Positions 1,485 to 17,894 of a stretch of 24,000 nucleotides of DNA are shown here, one piece after another. The notes below the pieces were generated by a model. That model did no database searches. It was not told the origin of the DNA and worked only from the letters and a program-made list of their open reading frames with translations. A program made the position numbers and the translations under genes. The stretch lies in NCBI RefSeq assembly GCF_000737575.1, contig NZ_CP006270.1, positions 41,163 through 65,162 on the forward strand, read 5' to 3'. The number at the start of each line of letters is the position of its first letter. Within the stretch, counting starts at the first letter, position 1. The stretch comes from Synechococcus sp. KORDI-49 (lineage in GTDB: Bacteria > Cyanobacteriota > Cyanobacteriia > PCC-6307 > Cyanobiaceae).

Positions 1485-2648
1485 ATGAAGGCTGATCATC
1501 GCGTTCTGCTGTTGTCGCCTGCTTCGAGTCCCGTTGAATTGCGCGGTCTCTGGCATCGCTACGGCGATTCGGCGGAGTCCTGGACGTTGAGAGGGGTGGA
1601 TCTGCAGCTCTCCGAAGGGGAGCTGATCGGCCTGCTGGGGCCCTCTGGATGTGGCAAGACCACCCTGCTGCGCCTGATCGCTGGCTTCGAGACACCGTCC
1701 AGAGGCAGCGTGCATCTGCAGAATCGGCCCGTCGCCGGAGAGGGGCGCTGGCTTCCCCCCGAGCGCAGGGGTGTGGGCATGGTCTTTCAGGACTACGCCC
1801 TCTTCCCCCATCTCACCGCCTGGCAGAACGCCTGTTTCGGTCTTCGCCCCGGTCAGGACGACAGCAGGGCCAGTTGGCTTCTGGATCTTCTCGGTCTGGA
1901 GGGTCTGCAGCAGCGTTACCCCCATCAGTTGTCCGGAGGACAGCGCCAGCGCCTCGCCCTGGCGAGGGCCCTCGCCCCGGCTCCGCAGGTGGTGCTTCTC
2001 GACGAACCGTTCTCCAATCTCGATGTGGAGGTGCGTCTGCGGCTTCGCAGTGAGCTCTCCACCGTGCTGCGCCTCTGCGGTGCCAGCGGCCTGCTGGTCA
2101 CCCACGATCCCGGCGAAGCGCTGGCGATCTGCGACCGGGTCGCCGTGATGCGGGATGGCGTTCTGCATCAGTGCGCCAGTCCACGATCCCTGGTGCAGGA
2201 CCCGGCGACACCTTTTGTTGGTCGCTTCGTGCTTCAGGGCAATCTGCTGCCGGTGGATCAGGAGACGGATGGCCGGCTTCGCTGCGATCTCGGCCTGCTC
2301 GAGCCGGTTGACGACATGCCGATCGACCCTCTCCCGGACCGCTCAACGGTGCTGGTGGATCCTGGTGCGATCGCGCTGGAGGTGGACCCGGAGGCCGAAC
2401 CCTGTGTGATGGGGCGTGAGTTTCTGGGTCAGGCCTGGCAGTACCGCATTCAGGCCGGTGACCTGCATCTGCGGCTGAGTGTTCCCCTGGATCAGGATGT
2501 TCCTCGTGGAACGCGATGCCGGCTGACGTTCCGGCCGGAGGCCACAGCCATCCTCTTTCCCCATCGGATCAGGGTGCGCGCCAGTGATCCTTGTGATGAC
2601 GCAACTCAGCGAGCTGTTCCGCGGACTCGGCCTGCAGAAAAAGGTTGA
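1485..2648 (+). CDS. ABC transporter ATP-binding protein (CysA/PotA/FbpC-type importer ATPase with a C-terminal regulatory, TOBE-like extension)
   Basis: Walker [11 protein letters not shown]-loop [11 protein letters not shown], signature [15 protein letters not shown], Walker [14 protein letters not shown]-loop LLVTHD, followed by a ~140-aa C-terminal domain. No permease or binding-protein gene is adjacent. The start could lie a few codons downstream. Confidence 0.9.
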
Positions 2649-3318
2649 TGCGCCGCTCGGCCCCGATCGAGCTCGGCAGGCTCAGCTCTCCCCTCCGGCG
2701 CAGGGCCACCACGTCCCGATAGCGGCTGGCGATCGCTTCATCGTTGGGCCGATGCTGCAAAGCCCAGTGCAGATTCGCTTCCGTGTATTCATGGGCGCAG
2801 CAGACCTTGGTGCGGTCCGGCAGGCCAGCCAGCCGCTGCATCGCCCGGTGCATGTCCGCCGGCGTTCCTTCCATCAGTCGTCCGCACCCAGCTGAGAACA
2901 GGGTGTCCCCGCAGAACAGGACGGGGCCGAGATCCGGGTCCTCCTCTTCAGGCAGCAGGAAGGCGATGTGATTGGCGGTGTGGGCCGCCACATCGAGCAC
3001 CTGCAGCTGGCGCCTGAGCAATGGCACCGCATCCCCGTCCGCAACGGAGATGGTCTGGAAGGGGATCCGTGTCCTGTCAGACGCTGCGGCGATCACATCT
3101 GCCGTCGGCCACCGCTCCAGCAGCGCTGGAGTTCCGCCGATGTGGTCGGCATGGTGATGGGTCTGCAACACCGCCACCAGCGTCAGATCCCTCTGCTCCA
3201 GCCAGACCTGAACGGGTTCGGCCACCGCTGGATCCACCACCACGGCGTTCCCGTCGCGCTCCCAGATCCAGATGATGTTGTCCTGCAGCACCGGCAGGGC
3301 ATGAAGCGCGGAACGCAT
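2569..3318 (-). CDS. gloB: hydroxyacylglutathione hydrolase (glyoxalase II), 249 aa
   Basis: From the internal ATG (cat at 3316-3318): '[20 protein letters not shown]...'. Metallo-beta-lactamase motif [10 protein letters not shown]; [12 protein letters not shown]; [14 protein letters not shown]; C-terminal [11 protein letters not shown], typical of GloB. The upstream 68 codons of the track ORF are discarded. Confidence 0.9.
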
Positions 3319-3349
3319 CGTTAAAGTCCAGCCTTGTATCCCGGCCCCC

Positions 3350-4000
3350 ATGATCACCGTCGCACTGGCCAAGGGGGCGCTGCTCAAGGATTCGGTGACC
3401 CGATTCGCGGCGGCCGGGCTCGATTTCTCCGCTGTTCTCGACAAGAACAATCGCCAGTTGATGTTGCCCACCCCCTGCGGTCGGGCCCGCGCCCTGCTAG
3501 TGCGCAATGGAGATGTTCCCACCTACGTGGCCTATGGCCAGGCCCAGCTCGGTGTGGTGGGGTACGACGTTCTTCGGGAGCACCAGCTCCCCGTCGCCCA
3601 GCTGGTGGACCTCGGTTTCGGCGGCTGCCGCATGGCGGTGGCGGTGAAGGCCAGCAGCGGTTACACCCGTGCCGCCGACCTGCCCCCCCACTGCCGTGTC
3701 GCCAGCAAGTTCACCCACTGTGCCCGGGCGTTCTTCGATGCTCTCGACCTGCCTGTGGAGCTGGTGCATCTGAACGGTTCCGTCGAACTCGGCCCGATCA
3801 CCGGCATGTCGGAGGCGATCGTTGATCTGGTGGCCACCGGCCGCACCCTGCGGGACAACGGGCTGGTGGCGATCGAGGATCTGTTCCAGTCCACCGCCCG
3901 CCTGGTGGGCCATCCCCTGTCCCTGCGCCTCGACACGGGCGAACTGGGAGCCATTGTTGACGCCATGCGCCTTGCGCAACCGGTCGGAGCCATGGCCTGA
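3350..4000 (+). CDS. hisG: ATP phosphoribosyltransferase, short form (216 aa)
   Basis: '[15 protein letters not shown]...[27 protein letters not shown]...[15 protein letters not shown]...[28 protein letters not shown]' matches HisG along its whole length. The length fits the HisZ-dependent short form. Confidence 0.92.
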
Positions 4001-10918: not shown

Positions 10919-12175
10919 CTATCTCAGAAAGGCCTGGGGATCCTGGTCGTATCGATCCCGGATCGGCAGCGGTCGGGGAGCGGCCGGGCCATCCAGTGCT
11001 GCCGTCGCCTCGAGACACTGCCGCAGCAGCCGCGCCGCCGGCAGCGGCATGTCTCTCGGAACGGAGATTCGATCCCGGAGATACCGCAGTCCGGCTGCAC
11101 TTCCGGAGGTCGGTCGGCAGGGGCGTCCGGTGATCAGCTGGGTCAGTGCGGCGCGCAGGGGCTGATCGAACCGCTCGCTCCCGAGGGGGTTCAGCGCCAG
11201 CAGCTGGTCACGGTGTCGCATCACCCGACCAAGGGCAAGAGCTGTTGTCCGCTTCGGATCGTCGTCGGTCCAGCTGGTTTCGTCCTGTCCGAGCCCGTCG
11301 CCGCGATCAATGGCTTCCGCCAGTGACTGCTGGCTCTCGGAAACATCCGGCCAGCAGCCGCCCATCTGCGGCGGAAGATCATGGGCATGGGTGTGCATGT
11401 CGCTCTGGGTGCCCCGGTAGGTCTCCAGCTGTTCAAGAGCCGCAAACCAGCGATCGATCGCCGGATGTTCGCGACGGAGGCGATAGCCCTTGTAGTAGGC
11501 CAGGGAGGCGTTCATCCGCTCCACGTAGGGCACGAACACCAGGTCCACGCCGCCCGGTCCCTGGTCATCCAGCCACGGACCAGGGGTCTGCTCCAGGGCC
11601 TGTTCCATCCGTTGCGCCGTGCGCTGGAACTGGTCGCGGGCCTGCTGCTGCTGTCTCGGCCTCAGGCCCGGGGAGCAGAGCCAGAGACACCAGGCCCGGA
11701 AGAGCAGACGCTCCAGCTGCCGCAGCTCCAGAGCCCGTGGATCCATCAGCGGCAGGCCGAGCGGTCCGAAGGCCTGCTCCAGGCTCAGCAGGATCACGTC
11801 GCTTTCGGTGATCAGCTGTCCGTCCAGCTCAAGGGCGGGAAGCATTCCCGATGGCACCAGCTGCAGAAACCAGGGCTCCTTGCTGCCGTAGCAGCGCATC
11901 GTCACCTTGCGGATGCGGTACGGGATGCGCTGGAACTCAAGCCACAGCCACACTTTCTGGCAGTAAGGGCACCAGGCGTGATGGTCGCGGTAGAGGGTGA
12001 CCCTGACGTCGGATTCGGAGTGCCCGAACAGACGCAGAACGGCCTGGGAGCTGGTGGGACCGTTGATGCGGTCCGGTTCCTGGCCGATGTACTGACTTAA
12101 CTGCTCCCAGCTCTGAGCTTCAGGAGTTGCCGGTGTAGGGGGCATGCAGGATCGGCGCGACGTTCCCTCTGCCAT
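10919..12175 (-). CDS. glutathione S-transferase-like protein with a glutaredoxin-type CPYC motif (418 aa; 408 aa if started at ATG 12145)
   Basis: 'VTLYRDHHAWCPYCQKVWLWLEFQRIPYRIRKVTMRCYGSKEPWFLQLVPSGMLPALELDGQLITESDVIL' is a thioredoxin-fold GST_N pattern (CPYC, cis-Pro region, ES motif). It is followed by a long helical C-terminal region. Confidence 0.8.
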   Translation of the reverse strand: MAEGTSRRSCMPPTPATPEAQSWEQLSQYIGQEPDRINGPTSSQAVLRLFGHSESDVRVTLYRDHHAWCPYCQKVWLWLEFQRIPYRIRKVTMRCYGSKEPWFLQLVPSGMLPALELDGQLITESDVILLSLEQAFGPLGLPLMDPRALELRQLERLLFRAWCLWLCSPGLRPRQQQQARDQFQRTAQRMEQALEQTPGPWLDDQGPGGVDLVFVPYVERMNASLAYYKGYRLRREHPAIDRWFAALEQLETYRGTQSDMHTHAHDLPPQMGGCWPDVSESQQSLAEAIDRGDGLGQDETSWTDDDPKRTTALALGRVMRHRDQLLALNPLGSERFDQPLRAALTQLITGRPCRPTSGSAAGLRYLRDRISVPRDMPLPAARLLRQCLEATAALDGPAAPRPLPIRDRYDQDPQAFLR

Positions 12176-12362
12176 AGGACTGCCAGTCGCCGAGTTCTTT
12201 CATCAGGGCCAGACAGTCCTGCTGGCGGCCCTCACGTGCCAGCTGATCAAGGCGTTGTTTCAGGTCGTCCATGGTCAGCATCATCACGATTTCGCGACGC
12301 TGAGCGCTGGGAGCCTGCTGCAGGTCAGGGGACTGCTGAGAGTGACGCTGGGGTTGTTTCAT
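12120..12362 (-). CDS. hypothetical small protein (80 aa; could start at the internal MM at codons 27-28)
   Basis: ORF with a protein-like C-terminal half ('MDDLKQRLDQLAREGRQQDCLALMKELGDWQSYGRGNV'). It is transcribed divergently from gor, and its 3' end overlaps the GST-like start by 26-56 nt. No family recognised. Confidence 0.4.
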   Translation of the reverse strand: MKQPQRHSQQSPDLQQAPSAQRREIVMMLTMDDLKQRLDQLAREGRQQDCLALMKELGDWQSYGRGNVAPILHAPYTGNS

Positions 12363-12419: not shown

Positions 12420-12488
12420 TTCCCGGACCATAACTCTGCCTTTACCTAAGCGCAGGTGTTCCCGGGCACCCGTCTCCGCTTCCCGGGC
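12420..12488. promoter_or_regulatory. three copies of TTCCCGG(G/A)C in the gor / small-ORF divergent intergenic region
   Basis: Exact 9-mers TTCCCGGGC at 12459-12467 and 12480-12488 (21-bp spacing), plus TTCCCGGAC at 12420-12428. Each contains the palindrome CCCGGG or a near copy. They lie 34-100 bp upstream of the gor ATG at 12522. Confidence 0.25.
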
Positions 12489-12521
12489 GTCAAGAGAATG
12501 GGACCCCCTGAGGTGTTGCGG

Positions 12522-13898
12522 ATGGATGCCGATTTTGATCTGATCGTTCTGGGAGCGGGTTCCGGTGGTCTGGCTGCCGCCAAGCGGGCGGTTCGCCACG
12601 GGGCGCGGGTGGCGATTGCGGAAGGAGATCGGGTCGGGGGGACCTGCGTGATCCGTGGCTGTGTTCCGAAAAAGCTGCTGGTCTACGGCGCGCAGGCCCG
12701 GCATCAGCTGCAGGACGCGCCCTCCTATGGCCTGCACGTGGAGGCTGTGCGCTCGGATGTGAGTGAACTGCTGGAGCGCGTGCGTTCGGAGGTTGATCGC
12801 CTCAACCTCCGCCATCGCCAGATGCTCTCGGAGGCCGGGGTGGAGTTGCTGCAGGGCTGGGGCCGGTTCACGGCTCCTGATCGCATCGGTCTGTCCGCCA
12901 CGCCCGGTGGACCGATCGAGCGAGAGCTCGGAGCAGCCCGGATTCTGATCGCCGTCGGCGGTCAGCCGATCCGGCCCTCGATCCCCGGCGCGGAACACAC
13001 CTGGCTGAGTGACGACATGTTCCTGCAGGAGACCTACCCGGATCAGGTCGTGGTGGTGGGTGCTGGATTCATCGCCTGTGAATTCGCCTGCATCCTCCGG
13101 GGCCTCGGGGTCTCGGTGACCCAGGTGGTGCGGGGCTCCCGTCTGCTGCGGGGCTTTGACCATGAGCTGGCCGATGCGGTTCTGACCGGGATGCAGGACA
13201 GCGGCATCCAGGTGTTGTTCGATCGCACGGTCCATGCCGTCGACCGCGTGTCGCCCGATGACCCGTCAGCCGGGTTGACGGTGGAGCTGTCTGATGGCCG
13301 CCACCTCCCCTGCGGCGGCGTGCTGATGGCCACGGGCCGTCGTCCCCGGCTGGAGGGGCTCGGCCTCGAGATCGCCGGCGTCGCGGTCGACCGTGGACGC
13401 GTTCTGGTGGATGCGGATCAGGCCACGTCCGTGCCCCACATCCATGCCGTCGGCGACGTCACCGATCGGATCAACCTCACACCGGTGGCCATCGATGAAG
13501 GCAGGGCCTATGCCGACAGCGTCTTCGGCGGCAGGCCGCGGCAGGTGAATCACGACCTGGTGGCCACCGCGGTGTTCTCCGACCCGGAACTGGCCAGCGT
13601 CGGATTGTCGGAACAGGCTGCGATCGAGCGCTTCGGCGAGGAAGCGGTCACGGTGCACCGGGCCCGCTTCCGTTCGATGTCCAGAGCGCTTCCCGCCAGC
13701 GGTCATCGCTGTCTGCTGAAGCTTGTGTTGCAGCGGGAGGGAGGCCGTGTGCTCGGCTGCCACATGGTGGGAGAGCACGCCGCGGAGATCATCCAGATGG
13801 CGGCCATCGCCGTTGGAATGGGAGCCACCAAGGCTGATTTCGATCGCACCATGGCGCTGCATCCCTCCGTCTCGGAGGAGTTCGTGACCATGGGGTGA
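12522..13898 (+). CDS. gor: glutathione-disulfide reductase (458 aa)
   Basis: From the internal ATG 12522: 'MDADFDLIVLGAGSGGLAAAKRA' (FAD GxGxxG); redox-active disulfide 'GGTCVIRGCVPKK'; NADPH site 'VVVVGAGFIACEFA' with 'VVRGSRLLRGFD'; C-terminal 'ALHPSVSEEFVTM' (His-Glu pair). ATG 12498 is an alternative start. Confidence 0.9.
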   Translation: MDADFDLIVLGAGSGGLAAAKRAVRHGARVAIAEGDRVGGTCVIRGCVPKKLLVYGAQARHQLQDAPSYGLHVEAVRSDVSELLERVRSEVDRLNLRHRQMLSEAGVELLQGWGRFTAPDRIGLSATPGGPIERELGAARILIAVGGQPIRPSIPGAEHTWLSDDMFLQETYPDQVVVVGAGFIACEFACILRGLGVSVTQVVRGSRLLRGFDHELADAVLTGMQDSGIQVLFDRTVHAVDRVSPDDPSAGLTVELSDGRHLPCGGVLMATGRRPRLEGLGLEIAGVAVDRGRVLVDADQATSVPHIHAVGDVTDRINLTPVAIDEGRAYADSVFGGRPRQVNHDLVATAVFSDPELASVGLSEQAAIERFGEEAVTVHRARFRSMSRALPASGHRCLLKLVLQREGGRVLGCHMVGEHAAEIIQMAAIAVGMGATKADFDRTMALHPSVSEEFVTMG

Positions 13899-13920
13899 TG
13901 ATCCGGATCGGCTCTGTCAA

Positions 13921-13937
13921 GCAGGTCAGTGACCTGC
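13921..13937. promoter_or_regulatory. perfect 17-bp palindrome GCAGGTCA-G-TGACCTGC between gor and the exbB-like gene
   Basis: Read directly from the sequence. It lies 23 nt after the gor stop and 37 nt before the exbB-like TTG start. A TAATTT -10-like hexamer sits at 13956-13961, so the right arm falls at about the -35 position. No U-tract follows. Confidence 0.3.
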
Positions 13938-13973
13938 AGAACCAGTGTTTCGACCTAATTTCTGGGCATTCGC

Positions 13974-14486
13974 TTGATCCGGTTGTTCGGCGCTGAGGCA
14001 CTGAAGCAGGGAGGTGCGCTGATGGCACCGTTGCTGCTGCTCTCCATCGCTGTGCTCTCAGCAGGATTCGAGCGCCTGATCTACTGGCTGAGCTGGAGGC
14101 GGGAGCAGCCCGGTTGCCTCGATGCCCTCCGGACCTCCCTGTCAGGGCTGACCAACGCCGAAGCCAGCAGGGTGCTCGAACAGAAACTGCGCCGACTGGA
14201 TCGCCAATTCAGCCGCTGGGAGCCCAGCCTTGATCTGGCGATGGTGCTGGGTCCCCTGATGGGGTTGCTCAGCACGGTGCTGGGACTGATGAAACTTCTC
14301 CAGGCCCTCGGTCCGGATCTCCTGCTTCCCAGGGGGGAGACCCTGCTGTCGGATTACGGGACCATTCTGGTAGGCACGGCTCTCGGGCTGGTGGTGGCGA
14401 TGGTGGCGCTGCTGGTGCAGCGCATCAATCGCATGCAGCGCCGGTCCGTTGTGGCGCAGTTGCGCGAGGCCTGTCTGGAGGTCTGA
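13974..14486 (+). CDS. MotA/TolQ/ExbB-family proton-channel protein (170 aa from TTG; 154 aa from ATG 14022)
   Basis: Three predicted TM helices. 'KQGGALMAPLLLLSIAVLSAGFERLIYW', 'LGPLMGLLSTVLGLM' and 'GTALGLVVAMVALLVQRI' match the family signature helices (canonical APLLGLLGTVxG and ALxTTAxGLxVAIPA). The TTG start retains the conserved segment preceding TM1. Confidence 0.8.
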   Translation: MIRLFGAEALKQGGALMAPLLLLSIAVLSAGFERLIYWLSWRREQPGCLDALRTSLSGLTNAEASRVLEQKLRRLDRQFSRWEPSLDLAMVLGPLMGLLSTVLGLMKLLQALGPDLLLPRGETLLSDYGTILVGTALGLVVAMVALLVQRINRMQRRSVVAQLREACLEV

Positions 14487-14843
14487 ATGCCGCTTGTCCT
14501 CGCCCTCAGCGCTGTCACCGTGACGTTGACGACAGCCCTGGCACTGCTCCCGAGTGCTCTAAGAGAGACACCGATCGAGAGTCCAAGCGTCCCCCTGGTC
14601 GACAGCCAGGCCGAACGCTGGTTCGTTGTGCGCTCCTCCAGCGGCAGCTGGTATCTGAACGGCGAGCCGATGGCCTCCAATCTTCTGGCTCGGATCCTCA
14701 TGGGGCCGGACCTGCCTCCGGGTGGCGTCAGCTTCCTGCCGTCCAGTGCCAGATCGGCCTCGCTGGTGGCCGACGATCTGGCCTGGCTACAGAGCAACAG
14801 CGCTGGTCCGGTGCGTCTGCAGCTGGAGGAGATCCAGCTGTGA
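14487..14843 (+). CDS. divergent ExbD/TolR-like protein 1 (118 aa)
   Basis: The ATG directly follows the exbB-like TGA. It has a single N-terminal TM (MPLVLALSAVTVTLTTALALL). The ~90-aa periplasmic part, 'WFVVRSSSGSWYLNGEPMASNLLARIL...VSFLPSSARSASLVADDLAWLQSNSAGPVRLQL', follows the ExbD pattern: strand-turn-strand, L-N-G-x-P, then a slowly varying block ending in a V-x-L strand. It has no cytoplasmic tail and no TM Asp. Confidence 0.5.
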   Translation: MPLVLALSAVTVTLTTALALLPSALRETPIESPSVPLVDSQAERWFVVRSSSGSWYLNGEPMASNLLARILMGPDLPPGGVSFLPSSARSASLVADDLAWLQSNSAGPVRLQLEEIQL

Positions 14844-15196
14844 CCTCCTCCTCTCTGCGCTGGTCGGTCGGTTTCTCCCTGGTCGCCGTGTCCCAGCTGC
14901 TGCTGATCACGGGATTGATCGTTCTGCCCCAGTGGCGGGCCCAGATGTCTGCCCGGGATGGGGTGATCACCTTCTTCGTGGGTAGGGACGGTTCAGTCCG
15001 TCTCTGGAATCGCCCCATCGATGCGGCGGTGATGCCCGCCCTGGTTCAACGGGCCGAACGCTTCAACGCCACCGCCCGCGTGCGGCTGGTGGCGTCACCC
15101 GGGGTCACCTGGGGTGTGGTGCAGGACCTTGTCTCCCTTCTTGATCAGACATCACTCGATGTTGAACTTCAGCTCCCTCCGACAGCGCGCTCCTGA
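14840..15196 (+). CDS. divergent ExbD/TolR-like protein 2 (118 aa)
   Basis: The GTG start overlaps the preceding stop (GTGA). TM 'WSVGFSLVAVSQLLLITGLIVL' is followed by 'VITFFVGRDGSVRLWNRPIDAAVMPALVQRAERFNATARVRLVASPGVTWGVVQDLVSLLDQTSLDVELQL', which has the same ExbD-like layout as the gene before it. No TM Asp. Confidence 0.5.
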   Translation: MTSSSLRWSVGFSLVAVSQLLLITGLIVLPQWRAQMSARDGVITFFVGRDGSVRLWNRPIDAAVMPALVQRAERFNATARVRLVASPGVTWGVVQDLVSLLDQTSLDVELQLPPTARS

Positions 15197-15827
15197 GCTG
15201 CTGCTGCTCGCACTTCCCGTCGGCCTCTCTCTGGTTGTTCACAGCGTCTGGATCTCCAGAGACGGCGCTGAAAGCAGAGTGGGTGATTCGGACCAGAGCG
15301 TCAGCATCGACAACACCGCCCAGCTGGTGCGGATCACCCGACGGGCATCACAACAGCAGACGCTGGCTGCTGTGGGGTTGGATCTGAGCGGCACGCTTCC
15401 TCCCCCGGCTGCCGACGTGCTGCAGAAGATCGAGCTGCCTGACCCCAAGCCGGACTGCCCACCCCAGCAACAACGGGTGACCACCAAGGTGCTGCCGGAT
15501 GTCAGTGCACCAACGGCGATTCCGGCACCCCAGGAGCAGACGGCTCAGCGGCAGGAATCGGTCGTTGCAACGGCGCCGAGCGCGCCGTTGCAAGCGCTGG
15601 ACGGGGTCGCTCTCGATCGGCTGTGGGGACTGGCGATGGGGGTGCCGGTCTGGCCGGAAGACCTGCTGGGGCCGAAGCCGGTGATCGGAGAACTGCGGGA
15701 GCTCTCGCTCGACGACGTTGCCGACATGGATGCAACGGATCTTCATGAGCTCTCCGTTGAGGCGGAGTCCGGCACCTATCTGGTGAAGGTTTTCGGAGAC
15801 AGGGTTTTCCTGCTGAGAGAACCCTGA
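15159..15827 (+). CDS. TonB-like membrane-anchored protein: SxxxH anchor, Pro-rich spacer, unassigned C-terminal domain (222 aa)
   Basis: From ATG 15159 (38-nt overlap with the previous gene): 'MLNFSSLRQRAPELLLLALPVGLSLVVHSVWI'. A basic patch precedes a TM helix containing S-L-V-V-H (codons at 15228-15242), compared with E. coli TonB S-V-C-I-H. A Pro/Gln-rich stretch follows ('LPPPAADVLQKIELPDPKPDCPPQQQ...PTAIPAPQEQ', about 15391-15540), then a ~75-aa C-terminal domain without the TonB_C YP motif. Confidence 0.55.
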   Translation: MLNFSSLRQRAPELLLLALPVGLSLVVHSVWISRDGAESRVGDSDQSVSIDNTAQLVRITRRASQQQTLAAVGLDLSGTLPPPAADVLQKIELPDPKPDCPPQQQRVTTKVLPDVSAPTAIPAPQEQTAQRQESVVATAPSAPLQALDGVALDRLWGLAMGVPVWPEDLLGPKPVIGELRELSLDDVADMDATDLHELSVEAESGTYLVKVFGDRVFLLREP

Positions 15828-15898
15828 GTCGGTCGCAACAGCGACAGGGACCGGGCCAAGAGGACCTTATGGTGAAGTTAAGAATGCGTTAATGCCTG

Positions 15899-16378
15899 AT
15901 GCCCACTCTCCTGCTTCTGCTCCTCGCGTCGTGGCTTGGGGTGGGAACCGTGCAGGGGGGCGAGTGGTGCAGGTCTCAGGAGGGGGCGGTCGGCAGTTAC
16001 GACCCCGGACGGCAGGAGATCAACCTGTGCATGGAGCGGATCCGTGAGAAACAGCGATCCCCGATGGAAGTGGCGCGGCACGAGCTGTTTCATGCCGTGC
16101 AGCACCTGTTCGGGCGCAATGGCCGCAGTTTCCTCAGTGATGACCAGATCACGCCCCTGGTGCGCTGGCTGATGGACGACGGTGAAGTGATGGCCGTGCT
16201 CATGCTCTATCCCAGTGAGGAGATCAACAGCGAGCTGGAGGCACGTCTCGTGTCGCGATTGCTGCCCAATGAGGTCATCGGTGGTGCTCTGCTGGCAGGT
16301 CGGCTGCTCCAGGACGCACCACAGCAGGGACCGATCGGATCCTTGCGGGCCTACCTGCTCGGTCGCCCTGATTCCTGA
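15899..16378 (+). CDS. secreted small protein with an HExxHxxxH metal-binding-type motif (159 aa)
   Basis: Signal peptide 'MPTLLLLLLASWLGVGTVQG'; two Cys (C24, C44); 'VARHELFHAVQH' forms an HExxH zincin-like motif with a third His four residues later. It resembles the 'HELxHVxQ' core I recall from DUF4157. It lies on the same strand as the TonB-like gene, 71 nt downstream. Confidence 0.6.
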   Translation: MPTLLLLLLASWLGVGTVQGGEWCRSQEGAVGSYDPGRQEINLCMERIREKQRSPMEVARHELFHAVQHLFGRNGRSFLSDDQITPLVRWLMDDGEVMAVLMLYPSEEINSELEARLVSRLLPNEVIGGALLAGRLLQDAPQQGPIGSLRAYLLGRPDS

Positions 16379-16388
16379 TGTCCGACGC

Positions 16389-17894
16389 TTAGGCGAGGGT
16401 GTCCGCCAGGCGAAGGGCCAGCGCGATCACCGTGAGGCCCGGTCCGACGCTCGGACAGCTCGGGAAGACACTCGCATCGGCGAGGTAGAGGTTGTCAAGC
16501 TCATGGCACTTGCCGAAGCCATCGACCACGGAGCTCGAGGGATCCTCACCCATGCGGCAGGAACCGCAGCCATAACCCACAACGCTCATCGGTGCTCCAC
16601 CGCGGGCATGGGTGGGTGCCTTCAACACCACCTTGGTCACCGGATCCTTCTCCACCTCCTTCAGGGTGTCGATCCAGCGGTAGACCAAGCGGTCATGCGC
16701 TTCCCGGTTGTTGTGGATGTAATTGATCCTGATCTGGTCGTTGTGCAGCCAGATCTTGTTATGGGGATCCGGCATCACCTCCGTCATCGCCCACCAGGCG
16801 ACGGAGCGGGACGCCAGTCGCTCAAGGCCGAAATCGGGGATCATTTTGCTCACCAGGGAAAGCACTGGTGGTGACTCGGCAAACAACGCGTCCTGCAGAA
16901 CGCCTCCGGCTGTCTGGATGTGGCCAAGCGGGAAGCTGACGTTCTTGTCACCCCAGTAGTAGTCGTTGATGCCCAGAGAGCGCCCGTATCTGCCGCTGTT
17001 GCGTTCCGTGGCCAGCTGCAGGATCGAGGTGAGCTGAAGATTCATCAGATTGCGGCCCACCTGATCGGAGCCGTTGCTGATGCCTTTGGGGTGGTGCGAG
17101 TTCGCCGAACGCAGCAGGATCACCGGGGTGTTCACGGCCCCGGCCGCCAGCACCACGACATCAGAGCGGAACAGCCAGGTGTCGCCATCCAGCTCCGCCT
17201 CCACGGCCTTCACCTCACTGCCGCTGGGGTTCACATGCAGTCGCAGCACCCTGGCGTTGTCGCGGATGGTGAGCCGGTCTGGATCTCCGGCTTCAAGGCC
17301 GAACAGCTGGGAATCGCCGCTCGGGTCGTCCCGATCTTCGGACCAGCTGATCGGAATGTCGTACGGCTGGCATCCCTGGCGTTGCAGCGCGGCACGCAGG
17401 GGTTCGAGGAACGGCTCCACCGGCTTGGGCATGGCCACGTAATCACCGTTGCGGCCCGGCTCGGTGGGGTCCACCCCCGCCTTGCCGTGCACCCGGTACA
17501 ACTGCTCCGCCTGCTCGTAGTACGACGCCAGTTCGCCGTAGTCGAATGGCCAGGCCGGCGAGATCCCCTCCTGAAGAGGAACTTCGCCGAAGTCCTGCTC
17601 GCGCATGCGCTCGAGCACAGCTCCCCAGATCTTGGTGTTGCCGCCGCGGGCGTAGGTGGTCTGGGGCGCGAAGGGATCGCCGTCCGGCCCGAACCAGCGT
17701 TCGTTCTTGGGGTGGTAGCGGTCCTTGCGGAACAGATCCACGTCGGCGACGTTCTGGTCCTCGAGAGCCATGGCCCCGCCGCGCTCCAGCACCAGCACGG
17801 ATTTGCCCTTGCGGCTGAGGGCACCGGCCAGGGTGCCGCCACCGGCTCCGCTGCCGATGACGATGACGTCGTAATGGCGGTCGTCGATGATCAT
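16389..17894 (-). CDS. GMC-family FAD-dependent oxidoreductase (501 aa)
   Basis: N-terminal 'YDVIVIGSGAGGGTLAGALSRKGKSVLVLERGG' (FAD ADP-binding fold), mid 'VVVLAAGAVNTPVILLRS', C-terminal 'LYLADASVFPSCPSVGPGLTVIALALRLADTL' (GMC_oxred_C). The start lies 4 nt after the ctaE stop. Confidence 0.88.
   Translation of the reverse strand: MIIDDRHYDVIVIGSGAGGGTLAGALSRKGKSVLVLERGGAMALEDQNVADVDLFRKDRYHPKNERWFGPDGDPFAPQTTYARGGNTKIWGAVLERMREQDFGEVPLQEGISPAWPFDYGELASYYEQAEQLYRVHGKAGVDPTEPGRNGDYVAMPKPVEPFLEPLRAALQRQGCQPYDIPISWSEDRDDPSGDSQLFGLEAGDPDRLTIRDNARVLRLHVNPSGSEVKAVEAELDGDTWLFRSDVVVLAAGAVNTPVILLRSANSHHPKGISNGSDQVGRNLMNLQLTSILQLATERNSGRYGRSLGINDYYWGDKNVSFPLGHIQTAGGVLQDALFAESPPVLSLVSKMIPDFGLERLASRSVAWWAMTEVMPDPHNKIWLHNDQIRINYIHNNREAHDRLVYRWIDTLKEVEKDPVTKVVLKAPTHARGGAPMSVVGYGCGSCRMGEDPSSSVVDGFGKCHELDNLYLADASVFPSCPSVGPGLTVIALALRLADTLA

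Follow-up and report, generated by a model that had tools for sequence, protein, structure and literature searches.

Synechococcus sp. KORDI-49 carries a block of four genes that, in our judgement with a probability of roughly 60%, encodes a highly diverged Ton/Tol-class trans-envelope machine specific to picocyanobacteria. The block lies in the window, the whole 24-kb stretch of DNA that we analysed (GC content 60-70%; all coordinates are window positions), where four open reading frames (ORFs) on the plus strand fill positions 13974-15827: gene 1 (13974-14486), a short MotA/TolQ/ExbB-family protein; gene 2 (14487-14843) and gene 3 (14840-15196), of 118 residues each, the latter predicted and the former probably ExbD/TolR-like; and gene 4 (15159-15827), a protein of 222 residues laid out like TonB or TolA. 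Marine Synechococcus and its relatives dominate ocean photosynthesis, their outer-membrane physiology is poorly understood and Ton-type energy transduction is usually said to be missing from them; the module points to an unrecognised energy- or force-coupled envelope process in these cells. An earlier reading of this DNA from its letters alone (the sequence-only reading) had singled out the block as ExbB-ExbD-ExbD-TonB-like and had wondered about its role should the host be a marine picocyanobacterium, which it is: KORDI-49 belongs to marine subcluster 5.1, clade WPC1 (supplement of PMC10119275).

Gene 1, which has three membrane helices, had been taken for a member of the MotA/TolQ/ExbB family, and a Pfam search bears this out (PF01618, E = 5.7e-13; score 49.2 bits, cut-off 22.9). 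When aligned by hhalign to E. coli ExbB plus TolQ, gene 1 matches over the second and third transmembrane helices (TM2-TM3) with a probability of 94% and an E value of 2e-7, and its family profile, searched against the PDB, scored 0.015 with TolQ, 0.025 with ExbB and 0.034 with MotA. By these profile comparisons gene 1 appears roughly equidistant from TolQ, ExbB and MotA, and it reaches the cut-off of none of the NCBIfam equivalog models for exbB, exbB2, tolQ and motA (13-21 bits versus 135-403). This short protein, whose cytoplasmic loop measures about 45 residues, keeps the equivalents of ExbB P141 in TM2, of the pore residues T148 and T181, and of S34 (TolQ S28) in TM1; the aligned pore residues in gene 1 are P78, T85 (Ser in locus L029) and T119, numbered from the ATG at 14022. 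ExbB S34 and TolQ S28 touch the His of TonB or TolA in cryo-electron microscopy structures (PMC12215075). We presume that gene 1 forms a pentameric shell.

Genes 2 and 3 had both been described as ExbD-like from their single membrane helix and periplasmic domain, a description that stands for gene 3 on the strength of its modelled fold and only probably for gene 2, while profile matches are lacking for both: neither showed any match in Pfam or NCBIfam at E<=1, and searches of the PDB with the profiles of the two families found no ExbD or TolR at E<=10. The AlphaFold2 model of gene 3 (predicted local distance difference test, pLDDT, 75.5) consists of a long N-terminal helix and a beta-beta-beta-alpha-beta-alpha-beta domain, which Foldseek matched to ExbD structures 8pek, 8p9r, 8vgd and 8vgc (E = 3.9e-5 to 2.6e-4, probability 1.0; root-mean-square deviation 2.1 Å over ~71 columns) and to TolR 5by4 (E = 5e-3). 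A broad profile of gene 3, whose family counts 20 close relatives, also aligned in register with ExbD plus TolR by hhalign (E = 0.005), and the gene 3 product is predicted to be a second, heterologous ExbD-like subunit with the ExbD/TolR periplasmic fold. Gene 2 has an N-terminal, Thr-rich membrane helix without a cytoplasmic tail, followed by a periplasmic domain of ~85 residues, and is poorly conserved compared with gene 3, with five word-based matches. Broad profiles of genes 2 and 3 aligned to each other over 95 colinear columns (hhalign, E = 7e-4, probability 27%; E = 0.003 in a further hhalign comparison), running from the helix through every secondary-structure element, and gene 2 aligned in register, not significantly, with E. 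coli ExbD. Gene 2 is thus a probable distant paralogue of gene 3 and a divergent ExbD/TolR-like subunit. We regard the matches that PDB profile searches returned for the families of genes 2, 3 and 4 (WD40 proteins, antibody light chains and LarA) as chance.

Gene 4 had been credited with the architecture of TonB, that is, a basic patch, an SxxxH membrane anchor and a Pro-rich spacer, and most of these landmarks are indeed present. From the N- to the C-terminus, the family alignment shows a basic N-terminus (MLNFSSLRQR), a membrane helix (approximately residues 12-33), an invariant motif, a DCPP segment, a spacer and a conserved C-terminal stretch. The anchor as described is kept only in part: its Ser, four residues ahead of the His, is Ala in most relatives, and the His, residue 28 (15240-15242), is near-invariant, being Asn or Gln in a few members. 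This exchange parallels one in TonB, where Asn is reported to stand in functionally for His20. The invariant motif, DNTAQLVRxTRR..QQ..V.LDLS..LPxP (residues 51-83; 15309-15407), starts some 15-20 residues past the helix and ends in KORDI-49 with LPPP. Behind it lies a variable spacer of Pro, Ala, Ser and Gln that measures 60-170 residues across the family and is modelled with a pLDDT below 50, and the protein ends in a globular domain of ~75 residues (approximately residues 148-222; 15600-15824). Only for residues 150-222 does AlphaFold2 reach a pLDDT of ~90; they make up a small alpha/beta domain that closes with a meander of three strands.

What gene 4 lacks is the TonB_C domain (PF03544), which was missing in Pfam, PDB-profile and Foldseek searches alike. 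No Pfam domain was found in gene 4 or in ten distant relatives, nor any match to vWA (von Willebrand factor A) domains; the PDB profile search gave no match, and a Foldseek search of the PDB with the model returned nothing below E = 0.79, the 50 top matches listed including neither a TonB nor a TolA chain. The predicted end domain is therefore best described as novel, in that the model matches no solved fold, and because the landmarks are kept while the TonB_C searches are negative, the layout of gene 4 is TonB/TolA-like yet without a TonB domain. From 1.84 billion representative proteins, searched in full with HMMER, only 34 representatives of the gene 4 family were recovered; these are low-GC and high-GC forms that share the landmarks, and every relative for which the DNA context was fetched sits in picocyanobacterial-type sequence. 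In TonB, a short segment after the anchor, the D-box, is captured by the ExbD dimer through strand addition (PMC10907165); the position of the invariant motif of gene 4 matches that of the D-box, and we infer by analogy that it may act in the same way.

These four genes travel together. The sequence-only reading had described a compact same-strand block, and its junctions are found in the sequence as claimed: the TGA of gene 1 is directly followed by the ATG of gene 2 (14484-14489), the stop of gene 2 overlaps the GTG start of gene 3 in a GTGA at 14840-14843, and the ATG of gene 4 at 15159 lies 38 nt ahead of the gene 3 stop at 15196. Genes 1 and 2 of KORDI-49 share a reading frame with only the TGA between them; in other lineages they overlap by one base and lie in different frames. 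Related loci were gathered by exact-protein look-ups, one genome scan and one metagenome scan; a scan of genome contigs with gene 1 only found nothing, an alignment-based scan found 3 loci and the metagenome scan added 14. Both the order and the overlaps recur in more than 25 related loci, and gene 1-gene 2-gene 3-gene 4 stand on one strand in every locus that is long enough to tell. The 4-nt overlap recurs across loci and the 38-nt overlap is present in nearly all, the exception being the Cyanobium-like locus L017, where the called gene 4 begins 14 nt past the gene 3 stop. Nei-Gojobori dN/dS ratios for several pairs of loci are mostly 0.08-0.4 for the four genes, which points to purifying selection on all of them.

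The loci span a range from ~50% GC (L018) to Cyanobium-like contigs of 66-67% GC (L017, L024-L029), and as judged from the sequences recovered the module appears to be restricted to the picocyanobacterial lineage. Since tblastn searches of phages with gene 1 and of plasmids with gene 4 gave no match, an origin in a mobile element is unlikely. In most marine loci gor, the glutathione reductase gene, lies on one side of the block and a GMC oxidoreductase/cta operon on the other. L017 and L029 have other upstream neighbours, with the four genes still together; directly upstream of gene 1, these two loci carry an island encoding an ArsR-family helix-turn-helix protein, a metallo-beta-lactamase-rhodanese, a rhodanese/YgaP protein and TauE (L029, 450-3730; L017, 1339-4424). 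A near-identical contig exists in a metagenome-assembled genome (MAG; GCA_045559935.1). RefSeq annotates gene 1 as 'MotA/TolQ/ExbB proton channel family protein' (WP_253912777) and genes 2-4 as hypothetical, IMG labels gene 1 ExbB and gene 3 ExbD, and the GenBank entries for window proteins of KORDI-49 include AII44911 (KR49_00310) and AII44912. Because three of the four genes are 'hypothetical protein' in RefSeq, profile-based surveys such as iron-uptake censuses miss the module, and our literature searches found no paper that describes it.

On the Ton/Tol-class reading, gene 1 would build a membrane shell of the MotA/TolQ/ExbB type, presumably a pentamer, and genes 2 and 3 would supply a heterologous ExbD/TolR-like pair whose helices sit in the pore of the shell and whose periplasmic domains pair just above the membrane. 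The helix of gene 4 would dock on the outside of the shell via its conserved His, the paired periplasmic domains would hold the invariant motif as ExbD holds the TonB D-box, and the Pro-rich spacer would let the novel end domain of 75 residues span the periplasm and reach a partner that belongs to the wall or outer membrane. The stoichiometry, the docking, the D-box-like capture, the client and whether the machine is ion-driven at all are points that we infer.

The partner is most likely not a classical receptor, because the module has its place in the core genome of strains that mostly have no TonB-dependent transporter and because accessory siderophore islands bring their own tonB-exbBD. The lack of TonB receptors in picocyanobacteria, which the sequence-only reading had brought up, fits the literature for most such genomes (PMC2771747; PMC9122953): published surveys detected no TonB-dependent transporter in Prochlorococcus (PMC2771747) and siderophore-transport clusters in only 47 of more than 700 picocyanobacterial genomes, each comprising a receptor with canonical TonB (PF03544), ExbB and ExbD (PF02472) (PMC9122953). 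Canonical fecA-tonB-exbBD genes are separate, rare accessory gene families or islands in picocyanobacteria, as catalogued in Cyanorak (PMC9122953; PMC10119275 supplements), and the Synechococcus subclades listed with them do not include WPC1. The absence of a receptor gene near the block was likewise correctly noted: neither the 24-kb window nor any of the fetched related loci holds a Plug, TonB_dep_Rec, Tol-Pal or siderophore gene, and none of the loci has tolB, pal, cpoB or ybgC. We consider an envelope function more likely, for example linkage to the outer membrane or wall, or the handling of a periplasmic or outer-membrane protein; a candidate is the co-conserved secreted HExxH protein encoded downstream by gene 5 (see below).

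Several findings weigh against such a machine. The most unusual feature of the module, on which the sequence-only reading had not remarked, is the missing membrane Asp: there is no Asp or Glu in the membrane helix of any of 15 gene 2 and 16 gene 3 orthologues, whereas ExbD D25, TolR D23 and MotB D32 are the protonatable residues of such proton-driven motors, described as essential and as kept even in newly found relatives (PMC12204202). In the in-register alignment ExbD D25 falls on Ser8 of gene 2 and on Ala16-Gln19 of gene 3, distant lineages do not keep the polar residues of the two helices (Thr in gene 2; Ser and Gln in gene 3), and the orthologue alignments show no conserved polar substitute at the depth of the motor Asp. 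Gene 1, for its part, has no aligned equivalents of ExbB W38, E176 and P190, and the likeness of gene 2 to ExbD is statistically weak. Finally, at least one lineage, that of Synechococcus MIT S1220, shows decay of the module, which is therefore dispensable there: the complete genome keeps only a 116-residue fragment of gene 1, beside the GMC oxidoreductase (L015, 5962-6312), and on a related Tara contig nothing but gene 4 is left, intact and behind an AT-rich insert (L016, 553-1272).

Two ways of recovering an acidic residue were considered and rejected. Alternative starts cannot give gene 2 or gene 3 an N-terminus that bears an Asp, because each ORF already opens with the earliest start that an in-frame stop allows, so that no upstream extension is possible. 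In gene 1, the cytoplasmic end of TM2 carries a conserved acidic residue, Asp71 as counted from the ATG at 14022 (14232-14234), which marine lineages have as Asp and L017 and L029 as Glu, with no counterpart in E. coli ExbB or TolQ; because of this location, ~14 residues off the pore Thr, it is no obvious replacement for the motor Asp.

It is the missing motor Asp that lends weight to a non-rotary reading, in which the proteins are the static remnant of a Ton/Tol motor, a 'pseudo-motor': the complex would still form, with gene 4 as the tether between the inner membrane and the wall or outer membrane, and would no longer conduct ions or rotate. The absence of this residue from every gene 2 and gene 3 orthologue, the loss of the ExbB E176, P190 and W38 equivalents from gene 1 and the loss of the module from some lineages are all consistent with it. 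Yet gene 1 retains its pair of pore Thr residues and its TM2 Pro, which would be unexpected for a functionless pore, purifying selection acts on all four genes across deep picocyanobacterial divergence, and the invariant juxtamembrane motif of gene 4 suggests a dynamic coupling site. We give the static tether substantial weight, as a reading less likely than the Ton/Tol-class machine. Less likely than either the tether or a Ton/Tol-class machine is an ordinary ExbB-ExbD-TonB set, too diverged for profiles, that serves receptors encoded elsewhere or inorganic iron uptake, as reported for Synechocystis ExbB-ExbD. With Ton systems, exbB-exbD1-exbD2-tonB clusters included, the module shares tight operon packing, a MotA/TolQ/ExbB-family shell that keeps the TM2 Pro, the TM1 Ser and both pore Thr, the ExbD fold as modelled for the periplasmic domain of gene 3, and, encoded downstream, a protein that crosses the membrane once, has a His in that helix and continues with a conserved juxtamembrane stretch and a spacer rich in Pro. 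The IMG labels favour an ordinary set, tonB is often unlinked to receptors (PMC12204202) and some basal cyanobacteria have ExbBD and receptors with no recognisable TonB (bioRxiv 10.1101/2021.11.08.467730). In contrast to ExbB-ExbD-TonB, there are no ExbD or TonB_C profile matches, no membrane Asp in either ExbD-like protein and no equivalents of W38, E176 and P190; the end domain has a different, unmatched fold rather than the TonB_C domain for which Pfam, the PDB profile search and Foldseek were all negative; and the neighbourhood encodes no TonB-dependent transporter. The lineage has few such transporters and most picocyanobacteria have none (PMC2771747; PMC9122953), receptor-bearing strains have islands with a canonical tonB, exbB and exbD of their own (PMC9122953) and the module is kept regardless, at its core position, all of which makes an ordinary Ton set improbable.

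Also less likely than the tether or the Ton/Tol-class machine, and indeed highly improbable, is a surface-motility or surface-layer motor like AglR-AglQ-AglS of Myxococcus. The gene content matches, with one TolQ-like shell protein and two heterologous TolR-like proteins, and some marine Synechococcus swim by an unknown motor. The distribution of the module does not follow motility, however: swimming is known only from one marine clade, whereas the module spans non-motile lineages that include freshwater or Cyanobium-like and ~50% GC relatives; no motility genes adjoin it; the Myxococcus motor is not known to include a fourth gene comparable to the TonB-like gene 4; and AglR-AglQ-AglS keeps the motor Asp that is missing here.

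Two further systems invite comparison with the proposed Ton/Tol-class machine. As in TolQ-TolR-TolA, the transducer layout is shared, gene 1 is as close to TolQ as to ExbB and a role in envelope integrity is plausible where receptors are absent; unlike Tol-Pal loci, those of the module have no tolB, pal, cpoB or ybgC, they contain two different TolR-like genes rather than one, neither with the Asp, and gene 4 has no TolA domain III. Tol-Pal has been reported only in Gracilicutes (PMC12204202). The vWA-type force transducers of Williams-Jones et al. 2025 (PMC12204202) share with gene 4 a His-bearing helix, a disordered region with a 'motor box', a linker and an end domain that is neither TonB- nor TolA-like, whereas the end domain of the module, at ~75 residues, has no vWA signature and no tetratricopeptide-repeat gene accompanies it; those systems occur in the Planctomycetes-Verrucomicrobia-Chlamydiae (PVC) group, Proteobacteria and Bacteroidetes and retain the Asp, whereas the module is cyanobacterial and lacks it. 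Scans of genes 2-4 with Pfam, NCBIfam and PADLOC returned nothing, and no Zorya-type match either.

Tentatively, the module may represent an undescribed picocyanobacterial branch of the 5:2 motor and force-transducer superfamily with a new end-domain fold, either energised without the carboxylate common to the characterised MotAB, ExbBD and TolQR motors or evolved into a non-rotary tether, a proposal that we consider possible rather than probable. If it holds, energisation without the carboxylate would imply a new ion-coupling chemistry, and in both cases the most abundant marine phototrophs would own a trans-envelope machine that serves some client other than a TonB-dependent transporter. Possible roles include nutrient or metal entry, outer-membrane stability, vesicle release and wall remodelling, and the absence of the motor Asp makes the module a natural test case for which residues are indispensable in 5:2 machines and for how such motors evolve into something else.

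The sequence-only reading named gor and a small secreted HExxH protein as the flanks of the block. Both are present, but the second is a conserved neighbour rather than an incidental one. Gene 5 (15899-16378, plus strand) encodes a secreted protein of 159 residues in which a signal peptide is present and two Cys and the motif RHExFHxxQH are invariant, and follows gene 4 after ~70-100 nt in most module loci, including distant ones at 54-58% identity; it is missing in L010 and L017. Its match to Zn_peptidase_2 in Pfam is weak (E = 0.004) and below threshold, it belongs to no known family, and PDB profile matches to designed Kelch 'SAKe' proteins were dismissed as a repeat artefact. Synteny suggests that gene 5 may be a fifth member of the module, its partner or simply a stable neighbour. 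In L014 (7805-10280; MAG TMED177), ~2.4 kb separate genes 4 and 5, of which the first 1.9 kb contain no long ORF.

At the other end, the left boundary first given for the block, 13921, is wrong for gene 1, which cannot start there because of an in-frame TAA at 13956-13958. The start is the TTG at 13974 (170 residues, the form of WP_253912777) or the TTG at 13983 (167 residues); the N-terminal sequence FG.eAL.qGG..m.PLLLLS is kept as protein in distant orthologues, and the internal ATG at 14022 reads ATC in three orthologous loci. Position 13921 coincides with a palindrome, GCAGGTCA-G-TGACCTGC (13921-13937, plus strand), in the spacer between gor and gene 1, 23 nt past the gor stop, which forms the central stem of the minimum-energy fold. 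This stem is kept in orthologues despite changes on both sides (GCATG/CATGC in L021, GCAAA/TTTGC in L006), and is probably a 3' stem-loop of gor that would part the gor transcript from the module. A scan for sigma-70 and terminator consensus sequences and an Rfam scan of 13500-16500 gave nothing meaningful. Because the motif CTGTCAAGCA and the -10-like CCTAATTTC in the spacer (13914-13963) are conserved in several subcluster 5.1 lineages, the latter ~10-20 nt ahead of the start of gene 1, the spacer suggests a promoter that belongs to the module itself, with a very short leader.

Further upstream, several glutathione-related genes surround the module, encoding a protein like hydroxyacylglutathione hydrolase (2569-3522), a large protein like glutathione S-transferase (10919-12175) and glutathione reductase (gor, 12456-13898), and a conserved ORF of 80 residues on the minus strand (12120-12362), which belongs to no family, recurs in related loci.

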